Source: Escherichia coli
Lineage (GTDB): Bacteria > Pseudomonadota > Gammaproteobacteria > Enterobacterales > Enterobacteriaceae
Strand: one strand, 5' to 3'
Length of the DNA stretch: 64,000 nucleotides
NCBI RefSeq assembly: GCF_036507355.1
Contig: NZ_AP027877.1
Shown: positions 4,910 through 61,950 of the stretch, one piece after another
How positions within the stretch are numbered: the stretch's first letter is position 1
Layout: each line of letters begins with the position of its first letter
The notes under the pieces: generated by a model
The model's database searches: none
What the model saw: only the letters and a program-made list of their open reading frames with translations
What the model was told of the DNA's origin: nothing
Translations under genes and position numbers: made by a program

Positions 4910-4918
4910 TGCGTTTTT
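4910..4918. repeat. target-site duplication (left copy) TGCGTTTTT
   Basis: Identical 9-mer directly flanks both IS1 ends (4910..4918 and 5687..5695). Confidence 0.8.
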
Positions 4919-4973
4919 GGTGATGCTGCCAACTTACTGATTTAGTGTATGATGGTGTTTTTGAGGTGCTCCA

Positions 4974-5249
4974 GTGGCTTCTGTTTCTATCAGCTGTCCC
5001 TCCTGTTCAGCTACTGACGGGGTGGTGCGTAACGGCAAAAGCACCGCCGGACATCAGCGCTATCTCTGCTCTCACTGCCGTAAAACATGGCAACTGCAGT
5101 TCACTTACACCGCTTCTCAACCCGGTACGCACCAGAAAATCATTGATATGGCCATGAATGGCGTTGGATGCCGGGCAACAGCCCGCATTATGGGCGTTGG
5201 CCTCAACACGATTTTACGTCACTTAAAAAACTCAGGCCGCAGTCGGTAA
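4974..5249 (+). CDS. insA: IS1 InsA (transposition inhibitor / N-terminal part of InsAB' transposase)
   Basis: 91-aa [26 protein letters not shown]..., recognised IS1 InsA zinc-finger/HTH protein; GTG start. Confidence 0.9.
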
Positions 5250-5671
5250 CCTCGCGCATACAGCCGGGCAGTGACGTCATCGTCTGCGCGGAAATGGACG
5301 AACAGTGGGGCTATGTCGGGGCTAAATCGCGCCAGCGCTGGCTGTTTTACGCGTATGACAGGCTCCGGAAGACGGTTGTTGCGCACGTATTCGGTGAACG
5401 CACGATGGCGACGCTGGGGCGTCTTATGAGCCTGCTGTCACCCTTTGACGTGGTGATATGGATGACGGATGGCTGGCCGCTGTATGAATCCCGCCTGAAG
5501 GGAAAGCTGCACGTAATCAGCAAGCGATATACGCAGCGAATTGAGCGGCATAACCTGAATCTGAGGCAGCACCTGGCACGGCTGGGACGGAAGTCGCTGT
5601 CGTTCTCAAAATCGGTGGAGCTGCATGACAAAGTCATCGGGCATTATCTGAACATAAAACACTATCAATAA
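5168..5671 (+). CDS. insB: IS1 InsB reading frame (transposase catalytic part, expressed by -1 frameshift from insA)
   Basis: 167-aa ORF in -1 frame overlapping the insA 3' end, typical IS1 organisation. Confidence 0.85.
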
Positions 5672-5686
5672 GTTGGAGTCATTACC

Positions 5687-5695
5687 TGCGTTTTT
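5687..5695. repeat. target-site duplication (right copy) TGCGTTTTT
   Basis: See left copy. Confidence 0.8.
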
Positions 5696-25743: not shown

Positions 25744-25869
25744 ATACTCGTCATACTTCAAGTTGCATGTGCTGCGTCTGCGTTCGCTCACCCCAGTCAC
25801 TTACTTATGTAAGCTCCTGGGGACTCACTCACTTGTCGCCTTCCTGCAACTCGAATTATTTAGAGTATA
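25744..25869. repeat. ERIC / IRU intergenic repeat element (~126 bp)
   Basis: Contains the ERIC core in reverse orientation (CGCTCACCCCAGTCACTTACTTATGTAAGCTCCTGGGGA) flanked by TATACTCG...GAGTATA terminal inverted repeats. Confidence 0.8.
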
Positions 25870-29363: not shown

Positions 29364-30272
29364 CTAATTCTGCTGTAAAAAGTGCAGAAACTGACTTAAA
29401 GCATAAGAAGGCGTTTCGTTATTGCGCCAGAACACACCGACGCTACCTTTCTGTTCTATCTTTGGCAGGTTGAGTATCACCAGTTGTCCCTGGCTGGCAT
29501 AACGTTGCGCCAGGCGTAATGACAAAATAGAGATCATATCGCTGCTTTGTAACAGGTTGGTACTGACGTTCATCGACGCCGACTCAATCGTGTTTTCTGG
29601 CAGCATTACGCCGTGGTCTACCAGCGCATTATCAATACTAATGCGAATGGGGGTACCCGTCGGCCAGACGATCCAGCGCCAGTTGGCAAGATCATTCCAG
29701 CTGAGGGTGGCGTATTTCGCCAGTGGGTGCTCAGGGCGGGCGACAAAGCATACTGGCTCGGTGTACAGCACCTGATAATTCAGTGGCAGCTGCAATGCGC
29801 GACCGCCAATTCGCCCAACGACCACATCGACAGAACCTGCCAATAGATCTTGCAGCAATGGGGTCATCACCTTCTCTTCGATATTCAGGTGTAGAGTTGG
29901 CATCTTCGTAAGCAAATGCAAAATCGCCTGGGATACGCAGTCAGTGGCGACGGGAGAACAGCCAATTTTCAGACTGCCGACCAGTCCACCTTGTTTAAAA
30001 CGGGCCAGTTCATGTTGCGATCGCTCCATGTCATTGATTAACCGTTGGGCATGTTGCAATAACAATTTGCCGCCTTCAGTCGGACGTAATCCTTTGCTGT
30101 GCCGCTCAAAAAGTGTGATTCCAATCTCATCTTCGAGTTGTGACAACCATTTCGAAAGCGCAGGTTGGGTGATATTCATCATTCGTGCGACATGGGTTAG
30201 ATTGCCCTGTTCACCCAGCGCCACCAGCATTTCAAGGTGATGTAGTTTTAATTTTTGCGCCCAGTTCGCCAT
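29364..30272 (-). CDS. mhbR: LysR-type transcriptional regulator of the gentisate cluster
   Basis: ORF 29364..30320 trimmed to MANWAQKLKLHHLEMLVALGEQGNLTHVARMMNITQPALS (LysR HTH); divergent from the catabolic operon. Symbol by analogy to the Klebsiella mhbRTDHIM cluster. Confidence 0.75.
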   Translation of the reverse strand: MANWAQKLKLHHLEMLVALGEQGNLTHVARMMNITQPALSKWLSQLEDEIGITLFERHSKGLRPTEGGKLLLQHAQRLINDMERSQHELARFKQGGLVGSLKIGCSPVATDCVSQAILHLLTKMPTLHLNIEEKVMTPLLQDLLAGSVDVVVGRIGGRALQLPLNYQVLYTEPVCFVARPEHPLAKYATLSWNDLANWRWIVWPTGTPIRISIDNALVDHGVMLPENTIESASMNVSTNLLQSSDMISILSLRLAQRYASQGQLVILNLPKIEQKGSVGVFWRNNETPSYALSQFLHFLQQN

Positions 30273-30398
30273 TTGCCATAACCTCCAGGTTATCTCTCTG
30301 CCCGAAATGCCATTGTACATCTCATCTCTTTAATCACAATATCGCAACATATACAAAACAAAAGAAACATCTACCTTACCTGCACTGAGGCATTTACT

Positions 30399-31757
30399 AT
30401 GACTCAACGACGTGATTTACAAGCACTTATCGATGCTGCTCCGGTCGGCAAGATGCAGTGGCGCGTTATCATCTGCTGTTTTCTGGTGGTAATGCTCGAT
30501 GGTTTTGACACCGCGGCTATCGGATTTATCGCCCCTGATATTCGCACTCACTGGCAACTCACCGCAGGCGATCTCGCCCCGCTTTTTGGCGCGGGTCTGC
30601 TAGGATTAACCGCAGGCGCACTGCTTTGTGGCCCGTTGTCCGATCGCTTTGGTCGCAAGCGGGTGATTGAGCTGTGCGTCTTTTTGTTTGGCGCGTTAAG
30701 CCTCGCCTCGGCTTTCTCACCGGATCTGCAAACGCTGGTCTTCCTGCGCTTTCTCACCGGCCTGGGTCTGGGCGGCGCGATGCCGAACACCATCACCATG
30801 ACCTCGGAGTATCTGCCTGCCCGCCGCCGCGGCGCGCTGGTGACGCTGATGTTTTGCGGCTTTACGCTGGGTTCGGCGTTTGGCGGGATTGTCAGTGCGC
30901 AGCTGGTGCCGGTGATTGGCTGGCACGGCATTCTGGTGTTGGGGGGCGTGTTACCGCTGATGCTGTTTGTCGCACTGCTGGTAGTTCTGCCGGAATCGCC
31001 ACGCTGGCAGGTGCGCCGCCAGCTACCGCAGGCGGTGATTGCGAAAACCGTCAGCGCCATCACCCGCGAGCGTTATGTCGATACCCACTTTTATCTCATT
31101 GAATCAGCCTCCGTTACAAAAGGCAGCATTCGTCAACTGTTTATGGGACGTCAGTTACCCATCACGTTGATGCTGTGGGTAGTGTTCTTTATGAGCCTGC
31201 TGATTATTTACCTGCTCTCAAGCTGGATGCCGACGCTACTGAACCATCGCGGCATCGACCTGCAACACGCGTCCTGGGTCACCGCCGCGTTCCAGATTGG
31301 TGGTACGTTAGGCGCGCTGGCGCTGGGTGTGCTGATGGATAAGTTCAATCCTTTCCGCGTGCTGGCGCTGAGCTATGCCATAGGCGCTATATGCATCGTG
31401 ATGATTGGCTTAAGCCAGGATGGATTATGGTTGATGGCGCTGGCGATTTTCGGCACTGGCATTGGCATTAGCGGATCGCAGGTGGGGCTGAATGCGCTGA
31501 CCGCAACACTTTATCCAACACAAAGTCGCGCCACGGGCGTGAGCTGGTCAAATGCTATCGGCCGCTGCGGCGCGATTGTTGGTTCGCTGTCTGGCGGCGT
31601 GATGATGGCGATGAATTTCTCTTTCGACACCCTGTTTTTCATTATCGCTGTGCCTGCGGCGATCAGTGCGGTGATGTTAACCCTGCTGATTACCGTGGTT
31701 CGCCAGTCGACCTCTGTCCCTGACTCACTGCCTCGCGCAGGCGTTGTGAACGAATAA
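30399..31757 (+). CDS. mhbT: MFS transporter (aromatic acid/H+ symporter family), probable 3-hydroxybenzoate/gentisate uptake
   Basis: 452-aa 12-TM ORF; first gene of the operon. Confidence 0.75.
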
Positions 31758-31768
31758 GGAGCATCCCA

Positions 31769-32797
31769 ATGACTGATAACAATCAAAATAGCCGCGAGCA
31801 ATTTTATCAGCATATTTCCGGGCAAAACCTGACCCCGCTGTGGGAGTCACTGCACCATCTGGTGCCGAAAACGCCCAACGCTAACTGTGCGCCAGCGTAC
31901 TGGAATTATCAGGAGATCCGCCCGCTGCTACTGGAGAGCGGCGGCCTGATTGGTGCGAAAGAGGCCGTGCGCCGCGTGCTGGTGCTGGAAAACCCGGCGC
32001 TGCGCGGGCAGTCTTCCATTACCGCGACTTTATATGCCGGTTTGCAACTGATCATGCCGGGCGAAGTGGCACCGAGTCATCGTCATAATCAGTCGGCGCT
32101 GCGTTTTATTGTTGAAGGCAAAGGGGCATTTACCGCCGTTGATGGCGAACGCACGCCAATGAATGAAGGCGATTTTATCCTGACCCCGCAGTGGCGCTGG
32201 CACGATCACGGTAACCCTGGCGACGAACCGGTTATCTGGCTCGATGGGCTGGATCTGCCATTAGTGAATATTCTGGGCTGCGGTTTTGCCGAAGATTATC
32301 CGGAAGAGCAACAACCGGTAACGCGTAAAGAGGGAGATTATCTGCCGCGTTACGCTGCCAATATGTTGCCGCTGCGGCATCAGACGGGGAACTCCTCGCC
32401 GATCTTTAACTATCGTTATGACCGCAGCCGCGAAGTGCTGCACGATTTAACCCGACTGGGCGATGCCGACGAGTGGGATGGCTACAAAATGCGCTACGTC
32501 AACCCGGTCACCGGCGGCTATCCGATGCCGTCGATGGGCGCTTTCCTGCAACTGCTGCCGAAAGGGTTTGCCTCACGCGTTGCGCGTACCACTGACAGCA
32601 CCATCTACCATGTGGTGGAAGGTAGCGGGCAGGTCATCATCGGCAATGAAACCTTCAGCTTTAGTGCAAAAGATATCTTCGTGGTGCCGACCTGGCATGG
32701 CGTGTCGTTCCAGACCACGCAAGATTCCGTTTTATTTAGTTTTTCGGACAGACCGGTACAAGAAGCCCTGGGGCTGTTCCGCGAAGCGCGTTATTAA
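31769..32797 (+). CDS. mhbD: gentisate 1,2-dioxygenase (bicupin)
   Basis: 342-aa ORF with cupin His motifs ([17 protein letters not shown]); typical gentisate dioxygenase length. Confidence 0.8.
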
Positions 32798-32811
32798 TTT
32801 AGGAGAGAAAA

Positions 32812-33513
32812 ATGACTCAATACGTATTCGAACCGCAAGCGCCCGTTACCGTACCGGTTGTTGGCAGTGATGAACAATTCCCCGTGCGCCGCGTTTACTG
32901 CGTCGGACGTAACTATGCCGCTCACGCCCGCGAAATGGGCTTTGATCCGGATCGTGAACCGCCATTCTTCTTCTGCAAACCGGCGGATGCCGTTGTTCCG
33001 GTTGCCGCTGGTGAAACGCTGGCGCTGCCGTATCCGGCACAGACCGATAACTACCATTACGAAATTGAACTGGTGGTGGCGATTGGTAAAAAAGGCAGCG
33101 ATATCCCGCTGGAACACGCCCATGAATATGTCTGGGGTTATGCCACGGGTCTTGATATGACTCGGCGTGACCGTCAAATGGAAATGCGCCAGATGGGCCG
33201 CCCGTGGGAAATCGGTAAAGCGTTTGATCTCTCAGCGCCCATCGCGCCGCTGCACAAAGCCCGCGATATCGGCGGTATTGATAATGCGCCAATCTGGTTA
33301 CAGGTTAACGGCGAAGATCATCAGCGCAGCGATATTCGCCATCTCATCTGGTCGGTGAATGAAACCATCAGCTATCTGTCAGGCTTCTTTGAGCTGCAAC
33401 CGGGCGATCTGATCTTCACCGGTACGCCGGAAGGGGTTGGCCCGGTAGTGAAAGGTGATGTGATCACAGGCAACGTCGAGGGCTTAACGCCTATCGCGGT
33501 GAAGATTGTCTGA
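32812..33513 (+). CDS. mhbH: fumarylpyruvate hydrolase (FAH family)
   Basis: 233-aa ORF with FAH-fold signatures ([14 protein letters not shown]; [10 protein letters not shown]). Confidence 0.75.
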
Positions 33514-33518
33514 GGTGC

Positions 33519-34166
33519 ATGATGAAGCTGTACAGTTTTTTTAATAGTTCAGCGTCGTACCGGGTACGCATTGCGCTGGCGCTGAAAGGCATTAATTACC
33601 AGACCGAAGGGGTGAATATCCGTATTGGTCAGCAAAATGAACTGGCCTATCGGCGGATGAATCCGGTCGGGCTGGTGCCGACGCTGCTGACTGACGAGGG
33701 CGAATCACTCGGACAATCGCTGGCGATTATTGACTGGCTGGAGAGGCACTACCCGCAAGTTCCGCTGGTGCCGCAGGAAGAGCCGGCCCGCAACAAGGTG
33801 CTGGAAATTGTCTATGCCATCGCTTGTGATATTCATCCATTGAATAACTTGCGCGTGCTGCGCTACCTGACCGAAGAACTGAACGTCAGTGAAGAAGAAA
33901 AAAAACGTTGGTATGCGCACTGGATCCAGCAAGGGTTAAGCGCGGTGGAACAACTGTTGCGCCAGAACCAGTCGGGGCAATTTTGTGTGGGCGAGACGCC
34001 GACGCTGGCAGATTGCTGCCTTGTCCCGCAGTGGGCGAACGCGCTACGCATGAACTGCGATTTGAGCGGGTATCCACGCTGCAAAGCGGTGTACGACGCC
34101 TGCACACAGCTGCCAGCGTTCATTGCCGCAGCGCCAGAAAATCAACAAGATAAAATTTCAGCCTGA
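33519..34166 (+). CDS. mhbI: maleylpyruvate isomerase (glutathione S-transferase zeta-like)
   Basis: 215-aa ORF with GST N-terminal fold (MKLYSFFNSSASYRVRIAL). Confidence 0.75.
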   Translation: MMKLYSFFNSSASYRVRIALALKGINYQTEGVNIRIGQQNELAYRRMNPVGLVPTLLTDEGESLGQSLAIIDWLERHYPQVPLVPQEEPARNKVLEIVYAIACDIHPLNNLRVLRYLTEELNVSEEEKKRWYAHWIQQGLSAVEQLLRQNQSGQFCVGETPTLADCCLVPQWANALRMNCDLSGYPRCKAVYDACTQLPAFIAAAPENQQDKISA

Positions 34167-34180
34167 CCAGGAGAACTATA

Positions 34181-35374
34181 ATGACGAAAGTGACACGCGC
34201 AGTAATTGTGGGAGGCGGGATCGGCGGTGCGGCAACTGCGCTGTCACTGGCCCGCCTGGGGATCAAAGTGGTGCTGCTGGAAAAGGCGCATGAGATCGGT
34301 GAGATTGGCGCGGGCATCCAGTTGGGGCCAAATGCGTTTTCGGCGCTGGACAGCCTCGGCGTCGGCGAAGTTGCCCGCCAGCGCGCGGTGTTTACCGATC
34401 ACATTACCATGATGGATGCGGTGAACGCCGAAGAAGTGGTGTGCATTGAAACCGGGCAGGCTTTTCGTGACCATTTCGGCGGCCCTTACGCGGTGATCCA
34501 CCGGGTTGATATTCACGCCTCGGTGTGGGAAGCGGTACTGACGCATCCGGACGTGGAATATCACACCTCCACCAACGTCGTGGATATTCGCGAGACGGAA
34601 GACGATGTCACCGTGTTTGACGATCGCGGCAATAGCTGGACCGGCGATATTCTGATTGGCTGTGACGGCGTGAAGTCAGTGGTGCGCCAGAGCTTATTGG
34701 GCGATGCGCCGCGTGTCACCGGACATGTTGTCTACCGTGCGGTTATCGATCGTGCCGATATGCCGGAAGATTTGCGCATTAACGCACCGGTACTGTGGGC
34801 GGGGCCGCATTGTCACTTGGTGCATTACCCTTTGCGCGGCGGCAAGCAGTATAACCTGGTGGTAACATTCCACAGCCGCCAGCAGGAAGAGTGGGGCGTG
34901 AAGGATGGTAGTAAAGAGGAAGTGCTCTCTTACTTTGAAGGGATTCACCCCCGTCCGCGCCAGATGTTGGATAAACCGACTTCATGGCGACGCTGGTCAA
35001 CCGCTGACCGTGAACCGGTGGCGAAGTGGGGAACGAAGCGCATAACGCTTGTGGGCGATTCGGCCCATCCGGTGGCGCAATATATGGCGCAGGGAGCCTG
35101 TATGGCGCTGGAAGATGCAGTAACGCTGGGTAAGGCGCTGGCGCAGTGTGAGGGTGATGCGGCGCAAGCCTTTGCGCTGTATGAGTCGGTACGAATTCCG
35201 CGCACCGCGCGCATCGTCTGGTCGACCCGTGAAATGGGGCGGGTTTACCACGCCGCAGGGGTAGAACGCCAGGTACGTAATCTGCTGTGGAAAGGGAAAT
35301 CGCAGGCAGAATTTTATCGCGGCATGGAGTGGTTGTACGGCTGGAAAGAAGATAACTGTTTGCAACCACGCTAA
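34181..35374 (+). CDS. mhbM: 3-hydroxybenzoate 6-hydroxylase (FAD-dependent monooxygenase)
   Basis: 397-aa ORF with N-terminal FAD-binding GxGxxG (VIVGGGIGGAATAL) and flavin monooxygenase core. Confidence 0.8.
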   Translation: MTKVTRAVIVGGGIGGAATALSLARLGIKVVLLEKAHEIGEIGAGIQLGPNAFSALDSLGVGEVARQRAVFTDHITMMDAVNAEEVVCIETGQAFRDHFGGPYAVIHRVDIHASVWEAVLTHPDVEYHTSTNVVDIRETEDDVTVFDDRGNSWTGDILIGCDGVKSVVRQSLLGDAPRVTGHVVYRAVIDRADMPEDLRINAPVLWAGPHCHLVHYPLRGGKQYNLVVTFHSRQQEEWGVKDGSKEEVLSYFEGIHPRPRQMLDKPTSWRRWSTADREPVAKWGTKRITLVGDSAHPVAQYMAQGACMALEDAVTLGKALAQCEGDAAQAFALYESVRIPRTARIVWSTREMGRVYHAAGVERQVRNLLWKGKSQAEFYRGMEWLYGWKEDNCLQPR

Positions 35375-36955: not shown

Positions 36956-37178
36956 TGGCGTTCCTTTATTTGTGAGTGCTGAATAAGTATAGGAAAAAAC
37001 GAAGCCCTTTGCCGTTATCCATAAACGATTAAGATAAATCGGAAGATATCATTCACTTAGTGTATATTTTTCTGGATATGTCGTTTTATTGCTACTGATG
37101 TATTGCCACGCGAAACTAAAAAATATATCGCAACACACGGTAATCTCCGCGCACCTTTTCTTACCTGATTATTCCCCC

Positions 37179-38615
37179 ATGAATCGTGATTCCTTTTATC
37201 CAGCCATCGCCTGTTTTCCGCTGTTACTGATGCTGGCCGGGTGTGCGCCTATGCATGAAACCCGCCAGGCGTTAAGCCAGCAAACGCCCGCTGCACAAGT
37301 TGACACCGCATTACCCACGGCGCTGAAAAATGGTTGGCCAGACAGCCAATGGTGGCTGGAGTATCACGATAATCAACTCACTTCCTTAATTAACAATGCA
37401 CTACAGAACGCACCGGATATGCAGGTGGCTGAACAGCGCATTCAGTTAGCTGAAGCCCAGGCGAAGGCAGTTGCTACTCAGGATGGTCCGCAGATCGACT
37501 TTTCTGCGGATATGGAGCGGCAAAAAATGTCGGCAGAAGGGCTAATGGGGCCGTTTGCTCTGAACGATCCGGCCGCAGGTACGACCGGTCCGTGGTACAC
37601 CAACGGAACTTTTGGCTTAACGGCGGGCTGGCATCTCGATATCTGGGGAAAGAATCGGGCGGAGGTTACTGCCCGCCTGGGTACGGTTAAAGCACGGGCG
37701 GCGGAACGCGAGCAAACCCGCCAATTGCTGGCTGGCAGCGTAGCCCGCCTGTACTGGGAGTGGCAAACCCAGGCGGCGTTAAACACGGTCTTGCAGCAAA
37801 TCGAAAAAGAGCAGAACACCATTATCGCGACCGATCGCCAGCTATATCAGAACGGGATTACTTCTTCAGTTGAAGGTGTGGAAACCGATATTAATGCCAG
37901 CAAAACCCGGCAGCAGCTCAACGATGTCGCGGGGAAAATGAAAATTATTGAGGCACGGTTAAGCGCACTTACAAATCACCAGACAAAGTCATTGAAGCTT
38001 AAACCGGTCGCGTTGCCGAAAGTGGCAAGCCAGCTTCCTGATGAACTGGGGTACTCCTTACTGGCCCGGCGGGCAGATTTGCAGGCGGCGCACTGGTACG
38101 TTGAGTCATCGCTAAGCACCATTGATGCGGCAAAAGCGGCATTTTATCCTGACATCAACCTGATGGCCTTCCTGCAACAGGATGCGTTGCACTTAAGCGA
38201 TCTGTTCCGTCATTCCGCGCAGCAAATGGGCGTTACGGCAGGCCTGACGCTACCCATTTTCGATAGTGGTCGTCTTAACGCCAATCTCGATATCGCAAAA
38301 GCTGAAAGCAACTTGTCTATCGCCAGCTACAACAAAGCGGTGGTTGAAGCGGTGAATGACGTGGCGCGGACAGCCAGTCAGGTTCAGACACTTGCGGAGA
38401 AAAACCAGCATCAGGCGCAAATTGAGCGCGATGCCTTGCGTGTGGTAGGTCTTGCGCAGGCGCGCTTTAACGCGGGCATCATTGCTGGTTCCCGCGTCAG
38501 CGAAGCCAGAATCCCCGCGTTGCGTGAGCGGGCCAATGGCCTGTTATTGCAAGGGCAGTGGCTGGATGCCTCCATTCAACTCACTGGTGCGTTGGGCGGG
38601 GGTTACAAACGCTGA
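37179..38615 (+). CDS. mdtQ: outer-membrane efflux lipoprotein (OMF/NodT family), apparently intact
   Basis: ORF 37089..38615 trimmed to MNRDSFYPAIACFPLLLMLAGC (lipoprotein signal, LAGC lipobox), 478 aa, uninterrupted. Confidence 0.8.
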   Translation: MNRDSFYPAIACFPLLLMLAGCAPMHETRQALSQQTPAAQVDTALPTALKNGWPDSQWWLEYHDNQLTSLINNALQNAPDMQVAEQRIQLAEAQAKAVATQDGPQIDFSADMERQKMSAEGLMGPFALNDPAAGTTGPWYTNGTFGLTAGWHLDIWGKNRAEVTARLGTVKARAAEREQTRQLLAGSVARLYWEWQTQAALNTVLQQIEKEQNTIIATDRQLYQNGITSSVEGVETDINASKTRQQLNDVAGKMKIIEARLSALTNHQTKSLKLKPVALPKVASQLPDELGYSLLARRADLQAAHWYVESSLSTIDAAKAAFYPDINLMAFLQQDALHLSDLFRHSAQQMGVTAGLTLPIFDSGRLNANLDIAKAESNLSIASYNKAVVEAVNDVARTASQVQTLAEKNQHQAQIERDALRVVGLAQARFNAGIIAGSRVSEARIPALRERANGLLLQGQWLDASIQLTGALGGGYKR

Positions 38616-38667: not shown

Positions 38668-39429
38668 ATGGCACAGGTTGCGATAATTACCGCCTCCGAT
38701 TCGGGGATCGGCAAAGAGTGCGCATTATTACTGGCGCAGCAGGGGTTTGATATTGGCATTACCTGGCACTCTGATGAAGAAGGGGCAAAAGACACCGCGC
38801 GTGAGGTGGTTAGCCACGGCGTACGTGCGGAGATCGTGCAACTGGATCTCGGCAATCTGCCAGAAGGTGCGCAGGCGCTGGAGAAACTCATTCAACGGCT
38901 GGGGCGTATTGATGTGCTGGTGAATAATGCGGGCGCAATGACCAAAGCGCCGTTTCTTGATATGGCTTTCGATGAGTGGCGCAAGATTTTTACCGTTGAT
39001 GTCGATGGTGCATTTTTATGTTCGCAAATTGCTGCCCGCCAGATGGTGAAACAAGGGCAGGGTGGTCGCATCATCAACATTACGTCGGTACATGAACATA
39101 CGCCGCTGCCGGATGCCAGCGCCTACACAGCCGCTAAACATGCGCTCGGCGGGTTAACCAAAGCAATGGCGCTGGAGTTGGTCAGGCATAAGATTTTGGT
39201 GAACGCAGTCGCACCTGGGGCGATCGCTACGCCAATGAACGGCATGGATGATAGCGACGTGAAGCCCGACGCGGAGCCTTCGATTCCTCTGCGGCGTTTT
39301 GGCGCAACGCATGAGATTGCCAGCCTGGTGGCGTGGCTTTGTTCGGAGGGTGCAAATTACACCACCGGGCAGTCGTTGATAGTGGATGGCGGCTTTATGT
39401 TGGCGAATCCGCAGTTCAACCCAGAATAG
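38668..39429 (+). CDS. yohF: short-chain dehydrogenase/reductase (SDR)
   Basis: ORF trimmed to MAQVAIITASDSGIGKECA (Rossmann TGxxxGxG-like), 253 aa; catalytic YxxxK (YTAAK). Confidence 0.85.
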   Translation: MAQVAIITASDSGIGKECALLLAQQGFDIGITWHSDEEGAKDTAREVVSHGVRAEIVQLDLGNLPEGAQALEKLIQRLGRIDVLVNNAGAMTKAPFLDMAFDEWRKIFTVDVDGAFLCSQIAARQMVKQGQGGRIINITSVHEHTPLPDASAYTAAKHALGGLTKAMALELVRHKILVNAVAPGAIATPMNGMDDSDVKPDAEPSIPLRRFGATHEIASLVAWLCSEGANYTTGQSLIVDGGFMLANPQFNPE

Positions 39430-61374: not shown

Positions 61375-61484
61375 ATATTCATCCCTGAAATGTATTAATG
61401 AAATAAACGATATTTTACGTGCAATAAATGTTTGGCGCATTAGTTGTTTGAGCGAAAAATATCTGGAAAGCAGATCACAGTAAA

Positions 61485-61568
61485 TAAAAAAACCTGCTGG
61501 TGAGGCAGGTTCTTTTATTTACTATTTTCAGGCCTAACACCACAGCCTGTGCAACATCGTGTTCCAAC
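61485..61568 (-). ncRNA. orzO: candidate OrzO-like antitoxin sRNA of the zor/orz type I TA locus
   Basis: Minus-strand sigma70 promoter (-35 TTGCAA 61603..61598, 17-nt spacer, -10 TATAAT 61580..61575) precedes a region whose transcript would be complementary to the zorO 5' UTR (direct DNA repeat 61549..61573 vs 61715..61739), ending at a minus-strand hairpin plus U-tract (stem 61492..61510, A-run 61485..61491 on plus strand). Boundaries approximate. Confidence 0.45.
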
Positions 61569-61574
61569 GAACGA

Positions 61575-61625
61575 ATTATAACCACGGCTGGACCCCGTTG
61601 CAATTAAGATAATGAGATTTATAAT
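61575..61625. promoter_or_regulatory. back-to-back divergent promoters for zorO (+) and orzO (-) sharing one palindromic -35 hexamer
   Basis: Plus strand: TTGCAA (61598..61603), 16-nt spacer, TATAAT (61620..61625). Minus strand: the same self-complementary TTGCAA, 17-nt spacer, TATAAT (61580..61575). Predicted zorO TSS gives a ~174-nt 5' UTR. Confidence 0.45.
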
Positions 61626-61806
61626 CCAGACCGTTGGGACGTTGCGCCGGATCGGACCAATTTTAAGTCCTGGCTACCGGACGGGTGGTGCTGCAGGTGG
61701 TGCCCTGATCCGGAGTGCAACATCGTGGTCCAACATACGTAAACCAGTATCGACAGGCAGTGTAAGGGTAAGGTGCTGGTGTTGCGCTCCTTAATAAGGA
61801 GAGCGG

Positions 61807-61896
61807 ATGGACACGCTGACACAAAAGTTAACCGTGCTCATTGCTGTACTGGAGCTATTAGTAGCTCTGTTACGGTTGATTGATTTGTTGAAGTAA
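61807..61896 (+). CDS. zorO: type I toxin ZorO (29-aa hydrophobic membrane peptide)
   Basis: Read from sequence: AAGGAG RBS then ATG...MDTLTQKLTVLIAVLELLVALLRLIDLLK; matches recalled ZorO of enterohaemorrhagic E. coli; below track cutoff. Confidence 0.8.
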   Translation: MDTLTQKLTVLIAVLELLVALLRLIDLLK

Positions 61897-61919
61897 CGGG
61901 CAAATTGAAACGCATCTAA

Positions 61920-61942
61920 GGGGGAAAACCGCTTCCCCCTTT
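61920..61942 (+). terminator. rho-independent terminator of zorO
   Basis: GGGGGAA-aaccgc-TTCCCCC hairpin followed by TTT. Confidence 0.5.
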
Positions 61943-61950
61943 AATAAAGC

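Follow-up and report, generated by a model that had tools for sequence, protein, structure and literature searches.

An apparently ordinary, intact allele of the Escherichia coli core gene mdtQ (yohG), a gene frameshifted in K-12

In the 64,000-nucleotide stretch of E. coli DNA analyzed here (the window), the locus at 37179..38615 on the + strand is almost certainly an ordinary intact allele of the core gene mdtQ (formerly yohG), which encodes an outer-membrane factor of the NodT subfamily, a lipoprotein relative of TolC, OprM, VceC, and CusC. No evidence contradicting this identification was found. The intact state is the norm in E. coli, and K-12 is the exception. The gene, its intact state in strains other than K-12, and its status as a pseudogene in K-12 are already known from public annotation and from a review published in 2025, which describes mdtQ as conserved in the core genome although it is annotated as a pseudogene (PMC11762307).

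The mdtQ reading frame and its family

In the ORF listing, the gene lies in a single open frame (37089..38615, + strand) that amounts to 508 aa when counted from an upstream TTG. Counted from the ATG at 37179, the coding sequence comprises 1437 nt, corresponding to 478 codons and a TGA stop. The longer form, with its TTG start at 37089, is used by some GenBank records of mdtQ, and was rejected here as its extension of 30 residues precedes the signal peptide and would bury it. The ATG start of the 478-aa form is the correct one, because the NCBIfam model for MdtQ aligns over residues 1-478 of 478 and because the E. albertii orthologue begins at the same Met. Neither an internal stop nor a frameshift was present between 37179 and 38615, as judged from the ORF listing, the translation, and the alignment. 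The initial annotation had described an uninterrupted ORF of 478 aa at 37179-38615, and its coordinates, length, and description are correct; the overlooked frameshift that it had named as a possible objection was found neither in the frame nor in the alignment.

The first 22 residues of the translation form a lipoprotein signal peptide (37179..37244, + strand) that was read directly from the N-terminal sequence MNRDSFYPAIACFPLLLMLAGC and ends in the lipobox L-A-G-C, with the Cys as residue 22. The residues following Cys22 are Ala-Pro, and Asp is absent at position +2. All four lipobox residues (L19, A20, G21, and C22) are invariant across the 12 Escherichia alleles aligned. By the established rules for the lipobox and for position +2, we infer that the mature protein starts with Cys22 in lipidated form, and that the Lol system sorts it to the outer membrane.

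Assignment to the family is based on several profile models. The NCBIfam equivalog model for MdtQ (NF008524) scored 1025.7 bits against a cut-off of 650 and aligned along the full length (1-478 of 478), and the model of the NodT subfamily (TIGR01845) scored 274.4 bits against a cut-off of 210.05 over residues 16-475. The lipobox Cys that characterizes NodT-subfamily lipoproteins is present in the translated sequence, as LAGC at residues 19-22. The Pfam domain OEP (PF02321; E=4.1e-30) was detected in two stretches, in agreement with the two tandem repeats of that family. The paralogue models all remained below their own cut-offs, with 356.8 bits for MdtP, 96 for the CusC type, and 52 for TolC, and the same was the case for AdeK. 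Among proteins of solved structure, VceC (1yc9) is homologous to MdtQ over residues 51-477 with E=1.2e-39, and OprM, SilC, CmeC, CusC, OprN, and MtrE are homologous over the same residues with E=1e-19 to 1e-23; OprJ is also among these homologues. The signal peptide with its LAGC motif, the full-length match to NF008524, and the two OEP repeats bear out the earlier description of the product as an outer-membrane efflux lipoprotein.

The exact 478-aa protein is already present in NCBI as WP_338388257.1, where it is named MdtQ. Around mdtQ, the window is 99.99% identical over 21.4 kb to a contig of the E. coli assembly GCA_044688185.1. The best match among complete genomes is only 99.2-99.3% identical, and an origin from Shigella or from a divergent Escherichia lineage was therefore considered; it was rejected, as both the exact protein and the 21.4 kb of flanking DNA (at 99.99%) match an E. 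coli GenBank assembly. The protein differs from the other alleles compared by 2-6 amino acids, and the E. albertii MdtQ is 94% identical, with the lipobox and most other residues invariant out to that species.

The K-12 lesion and the frequency of intact alleles

Alignment of the window with K-12 and with E2865 located the site of the K-12 deletion to an A5 homopolymer run in codons 48-50 (CTG AAA AAT; 37322..37326, + strand), which is intact here. One A missing from the run CTGAAAAATGG, at window position 37326, is the sole indel between the window and K-12 mdtQ, the run being A5 here and A4 in K-12. This 1-bp deletion, at codons 49-50, shifts the K-12 frame and leads to a stop at about codon 70, while the remainder of the gene is open in another frame that has no signal peptide. 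No full-length lipoprotein can therefore be made from the K-12 copy. In MG1655 (NC_000913.3), the orthologous locus mdtQ/b2139 (2227323-2228758, 1436 bp), which was previously split into yohG and yohH, is annotated as 'pseudogene', and PGAP labels the mdtQ of a K-12 O16:H48 genome 'frameshifted'. That the K-12 reference carries a pseudogene had been suggested in the initial annotation, which proposed an alignment to K-12 mdtQ for finding the lesion and conceded that an intact K-12 gene would undo its reading. The suggestion is confirmed by the annotation of NC_000913.3 and by the deletion, the alignment places the lesion at 37326 (A5 to A4), and the K-12 copy is frameshifted rather than intact.

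Apart from the deletion, the two copies differ by 14 substitutions over 1437 nt, 12 synonymous and two nonsynonymous. Given so few changes, the K-12 lesion is recent, and the copy has not decayed further. The two amino acid differences between the window and K-12 are N267H, a common polymorphism among MdtQ alleles, and A398T, which among the 12 aligned alleles is private to the window and affects a variable position of the alignment with VceC.

The mdtQ locus is present at a coverage of at least 80% in 5407 of the 5426 complete E. coli genomes (99.6%). A 61-nt probe of the intact sequence, centered on the A5 run, had an exact match in 4587 of the 5426 (84.5%), a value that is a lower bound for the exact frame at the site of the K-12 lesion, as only exact matches were counted. 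The corresponding 60-nt (A4) version of K-12 matched exactly in 355 of these genomes (6.5%). Sixty of the 355 A4-allele genomes, all exact matches, were sampled evenly, and this sample contained MG1655, BW25113, DH1, DH5alpha, C600, J53, MC4100, JM109, TG1, and similar laboratory derivatives of K-12, together with EcN_Sk (NZ_CP172017.1), the single outlier in genome size (5.06 Mb). The latter has the K-12 deletion, and 1986 nt of its DNA at this locus match K-12 with 100% identity. EcN_Sk was for that reason rejected as a natural isolate with an independent lesion of the K-12 type, and the identity suggests that its mdtQ locus is sequence derived from K-12. Since the sampled carriers are either K-12 derivatives or have a locus identical to that of K-12, the A4 deletion looks specific to the K-12 laboratory lineage.

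These counts also bear on whether the apparent intactness of the gene could be an artifact of reading or assembly, for instance, a homopolymer miscall that masks a real frameshift. The one point in support of such an artifact is that the K-12 lesion sits in a homopolymer, and assemblies can go wrong at such sites. However, the identical A5 61-mer occurs in 4587 independent complete genomes, the identical 478-aa protein has been called on ~10 independent contigs (NCBI and Logan assemblies), and the length of the gene equals that in every intact allele examined. An artifact is thus effectively refuted, and we consider its probability to be negligible.

The gene is accordingly read here as genuinely intact, and the contrast with K-12 drawn in the initial annotation holds insofar as the gene is intact in the window and broken in K-12. 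The implied peculiarity of the present strain is misleading, however, as the intact state is common. Among 39 full-length mdtQ matches sampled evenly from complete genomes, 35 were without any change in length. Other inactivated copies were nevertheless observed. VTB96775v (NZ_CP178634.1) has a lesion of its own, the loss of 1 bp from a CCC run at the equivalent of window position 37672, the mdtQ of OkiPb01710 (NZ_AP042666.1) is interrupted by IS421, and Salmonella Typhi and Paratyphi A have independent truncations. Because it has been inactivated independently in K-12, VTB96775v, OkiPb01710, and the two Salmonella serovars, mdtQ is dispensable.

Gene neighborhood, expression signals, and selection

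The order of genes around mdtQ is cdd-yohK-yohJ-(island)-dusC-yohP-mdtQ-yohF-yohD-yohC-pbpG. The gene thus occupies the position of MdtQ orthologues, between yohP/dusC and yohF, and the same order is found in K-12, E2865, 33F4, and GCA_044688185.1. Downstream, yohF (38668..39429, + strand), identified from the annotation of orthologous loci as encoding an SDR oxidoreductase, starts 52 nt past the mdtQ stop. A terminator scan returned no terminator-like site on the + strand between 38615 and 38668. As the two genes are on the same strand, 52 nt apart, and have no such site between them, mdtQ and yohF may be co-transcribed.

The review describes mdtQ as encoded independently of any pump (PMC11762307). 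No gene for an adaptor or a pump was found within ~10 kb on either side of mdtQ, or anywhere else in the 64-kb window as annotated by synteny. MhbT was considered as a partner pump within the window and was rejected, being an MFS transporter of the adjacent 3-hydroxybenzoate catabolic cluster and not a tripartite pump.

The cluster to which mhbT belongs is a 3-hydroxybenzoate/gentisate catabolic island at window positions 29364-35374, located between yohJ and dusC and missing from K-12. It encodes a LysR regulator, MhbT, gentisate 1,2-dioxygenase, a FAH-family hydrolase, maleylacetoacetate isomerase, and 3-hydroxybenzoate 6-monooxygenase. The segment 27000-50000 of the window is covered to at least 80% in only 498 of the 5426 complete genomes.

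Three further features were observed elsewhere in the window. A 768-bp copy of IS1, with the terminal sequence GGTGATGCTGCCAACTTACTGAT and the A6C slippery site of insA/insB, is located at 4919-5686 and has a 9-bp target duplication, TGCGTTTTT, on its two sides (4910-4918 and 5687-5695). Comparison with strain 33F4 places this insertion within the 5' part of nupX (yeiJ), the gene of a nucleoside transporter, and nupX is therefore probably disrupted here. In the yeiS-preT intergenic region, a segment of ~120 bp (~25746-25867) is missing from 33F4, and it carries the motif ...CACCCCAGTCACTTACTTATGTAAGCTCCTGGGGA..., which we take to be the core of an ERIC/IRU repeat. Finally, the yehK-yehL intergenic region (~61455-61948) is not colinear with 33F4 and forms a gap between two BLAST blocks, and the adjoining yehI/yehK block is only 96.2% identical to that strain. 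Sequence comparison indicates that this region is locally divergent or rearranged relative to 33F4.

The promoter of mdtQ is presumed to lie in the yohP-mdtQ intergenic region (36957..37178, + strand). A promoter scan found no consensus sigma-70 promoter in this spacer, where the number of sites was no higher than in shuffled sequences, and no Shine-Dalgarno motif is visible in TTACCTGATTATTCCCCC, which precedes the ATG. According to the review, the promoter lacks experimental confirmation, and the function of MdtQ 'has not been elucidated' (PMC11762307). Taken together with the repeated independent inactivations and with the orphan position of the gene, away from any partner, these observations lend some support to a rival reading in which the ORF is intact yet effectively cryptic, that is, poorly transcribed or translated under normal conditions and without any contribution to efflux, its intactness reflecting either a short time since selection was relaxed or rare, condition-specific use.

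We regard a cryptic gene as rather unlikely. Pairwise dN/dS among four mdtQ alleles is 0.04-0.11, a range that fits continuing purifying selection on the gene. The near-universal presence of the locus among complete genomes, with the exact frame at the lesion site in at least the fraction given above, argues in the same direction, as does the invariance of the lipobox and of most residues out to E. albertii. In addition, mdtQ null mutants are, in the review's account of Sulavik 2001 (PMC90435), reported to be more susceptible to puromycin, acriflavine, and tetraphenylarsonium (PMC11762307). If the mutants in that account were made in K-12, the gene would already have been frameshifted in them, and the phenotype would need another cause, such as polarity on yohF.

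Proposed function and relation to known outer-membrane factors

Rather than being cryptic, mdtQ has plausibly been retained here as the gene of a functional outer-membrane factor, as suggested by its full-length membership of the family, the intact lipobox, and the low dN/dS. Beyond these sequence features, the mechanism outlined here is modeled on the family. The MdtQ precursor would be exported by the Sec pathway, lipidated at Cys22 by Lgt, and cleaved by LspA (signal peptidase II). As the residue at +2 is Ala and not Asp, the Lol system would then carry the lipoprotein to the outer membrane. There, it would assemble as a trimer that combines a beta-barrel pore with a long alpha-helical tunnel in the periplasm. 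By docking to the periplasmic adaptor of an inner-membrane transporter, whose gene would lie elsewhere in the genome, the tunnel would provide the exit duct for efflux. Expression of MdtQ, formation of the trimeric channel, and the existence of a partner pump and of substrates are likewise what we infer from its relatives.

A more specific proposal is that the intact MdtQ of wild strains works as an alternative exit duct, allowing TolC-independent efflux together with an adaptor and a pump encoded elsewhere, and that it has been missed systematically in work on K-12. We put this forward tentatively, as an idea that is more probably wrong than right. K-12 is a natural mdtQ null, and studies in this strain would consequently miss any contribution of MdtQ. 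Nearly all mechanistic work on efflux in E. coli has used K-12, which is atypical at mdtQ, and efflux phenotypes measured in K-12 are uninformative on MdtQ. If true, a TolC-independent MdtQ duct would be a property of a species-wide gene and not of this window.

Among known systems, VceC from Vibrio cholerae (PDB 1yc9), the outer-membrane factor in a tripartite system for drug efflux, is the closest solved structure and a full-length homologue of MdtQ. The sequence similarity is distant, however, and mdtQ is an orphan gene, whereas vceC is encoded together with its partners vceAB in the vceCAB operon. Within E. coli, MdtP (YjcP) and CusC are the other NodT-type outer-membrane factors and belong, with TolC, to the same superfamily as MdtQ, to which all three are paralogues rather than orthologues. 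Unlike MdtQ, TolC is not a lipoprotein. The genes mdtP and cusC, unlike mdtQ, share their operons with genes for adaptors and pumps (PMC11762307). The MdtQ proteins of E2865 (WP_001078114.1) and O157:H7 (UniProt Q8X659) are products of the same gene at the same locus, with 478 aa, 99% protein identity to MdtQ of the window, and the same lipobox.
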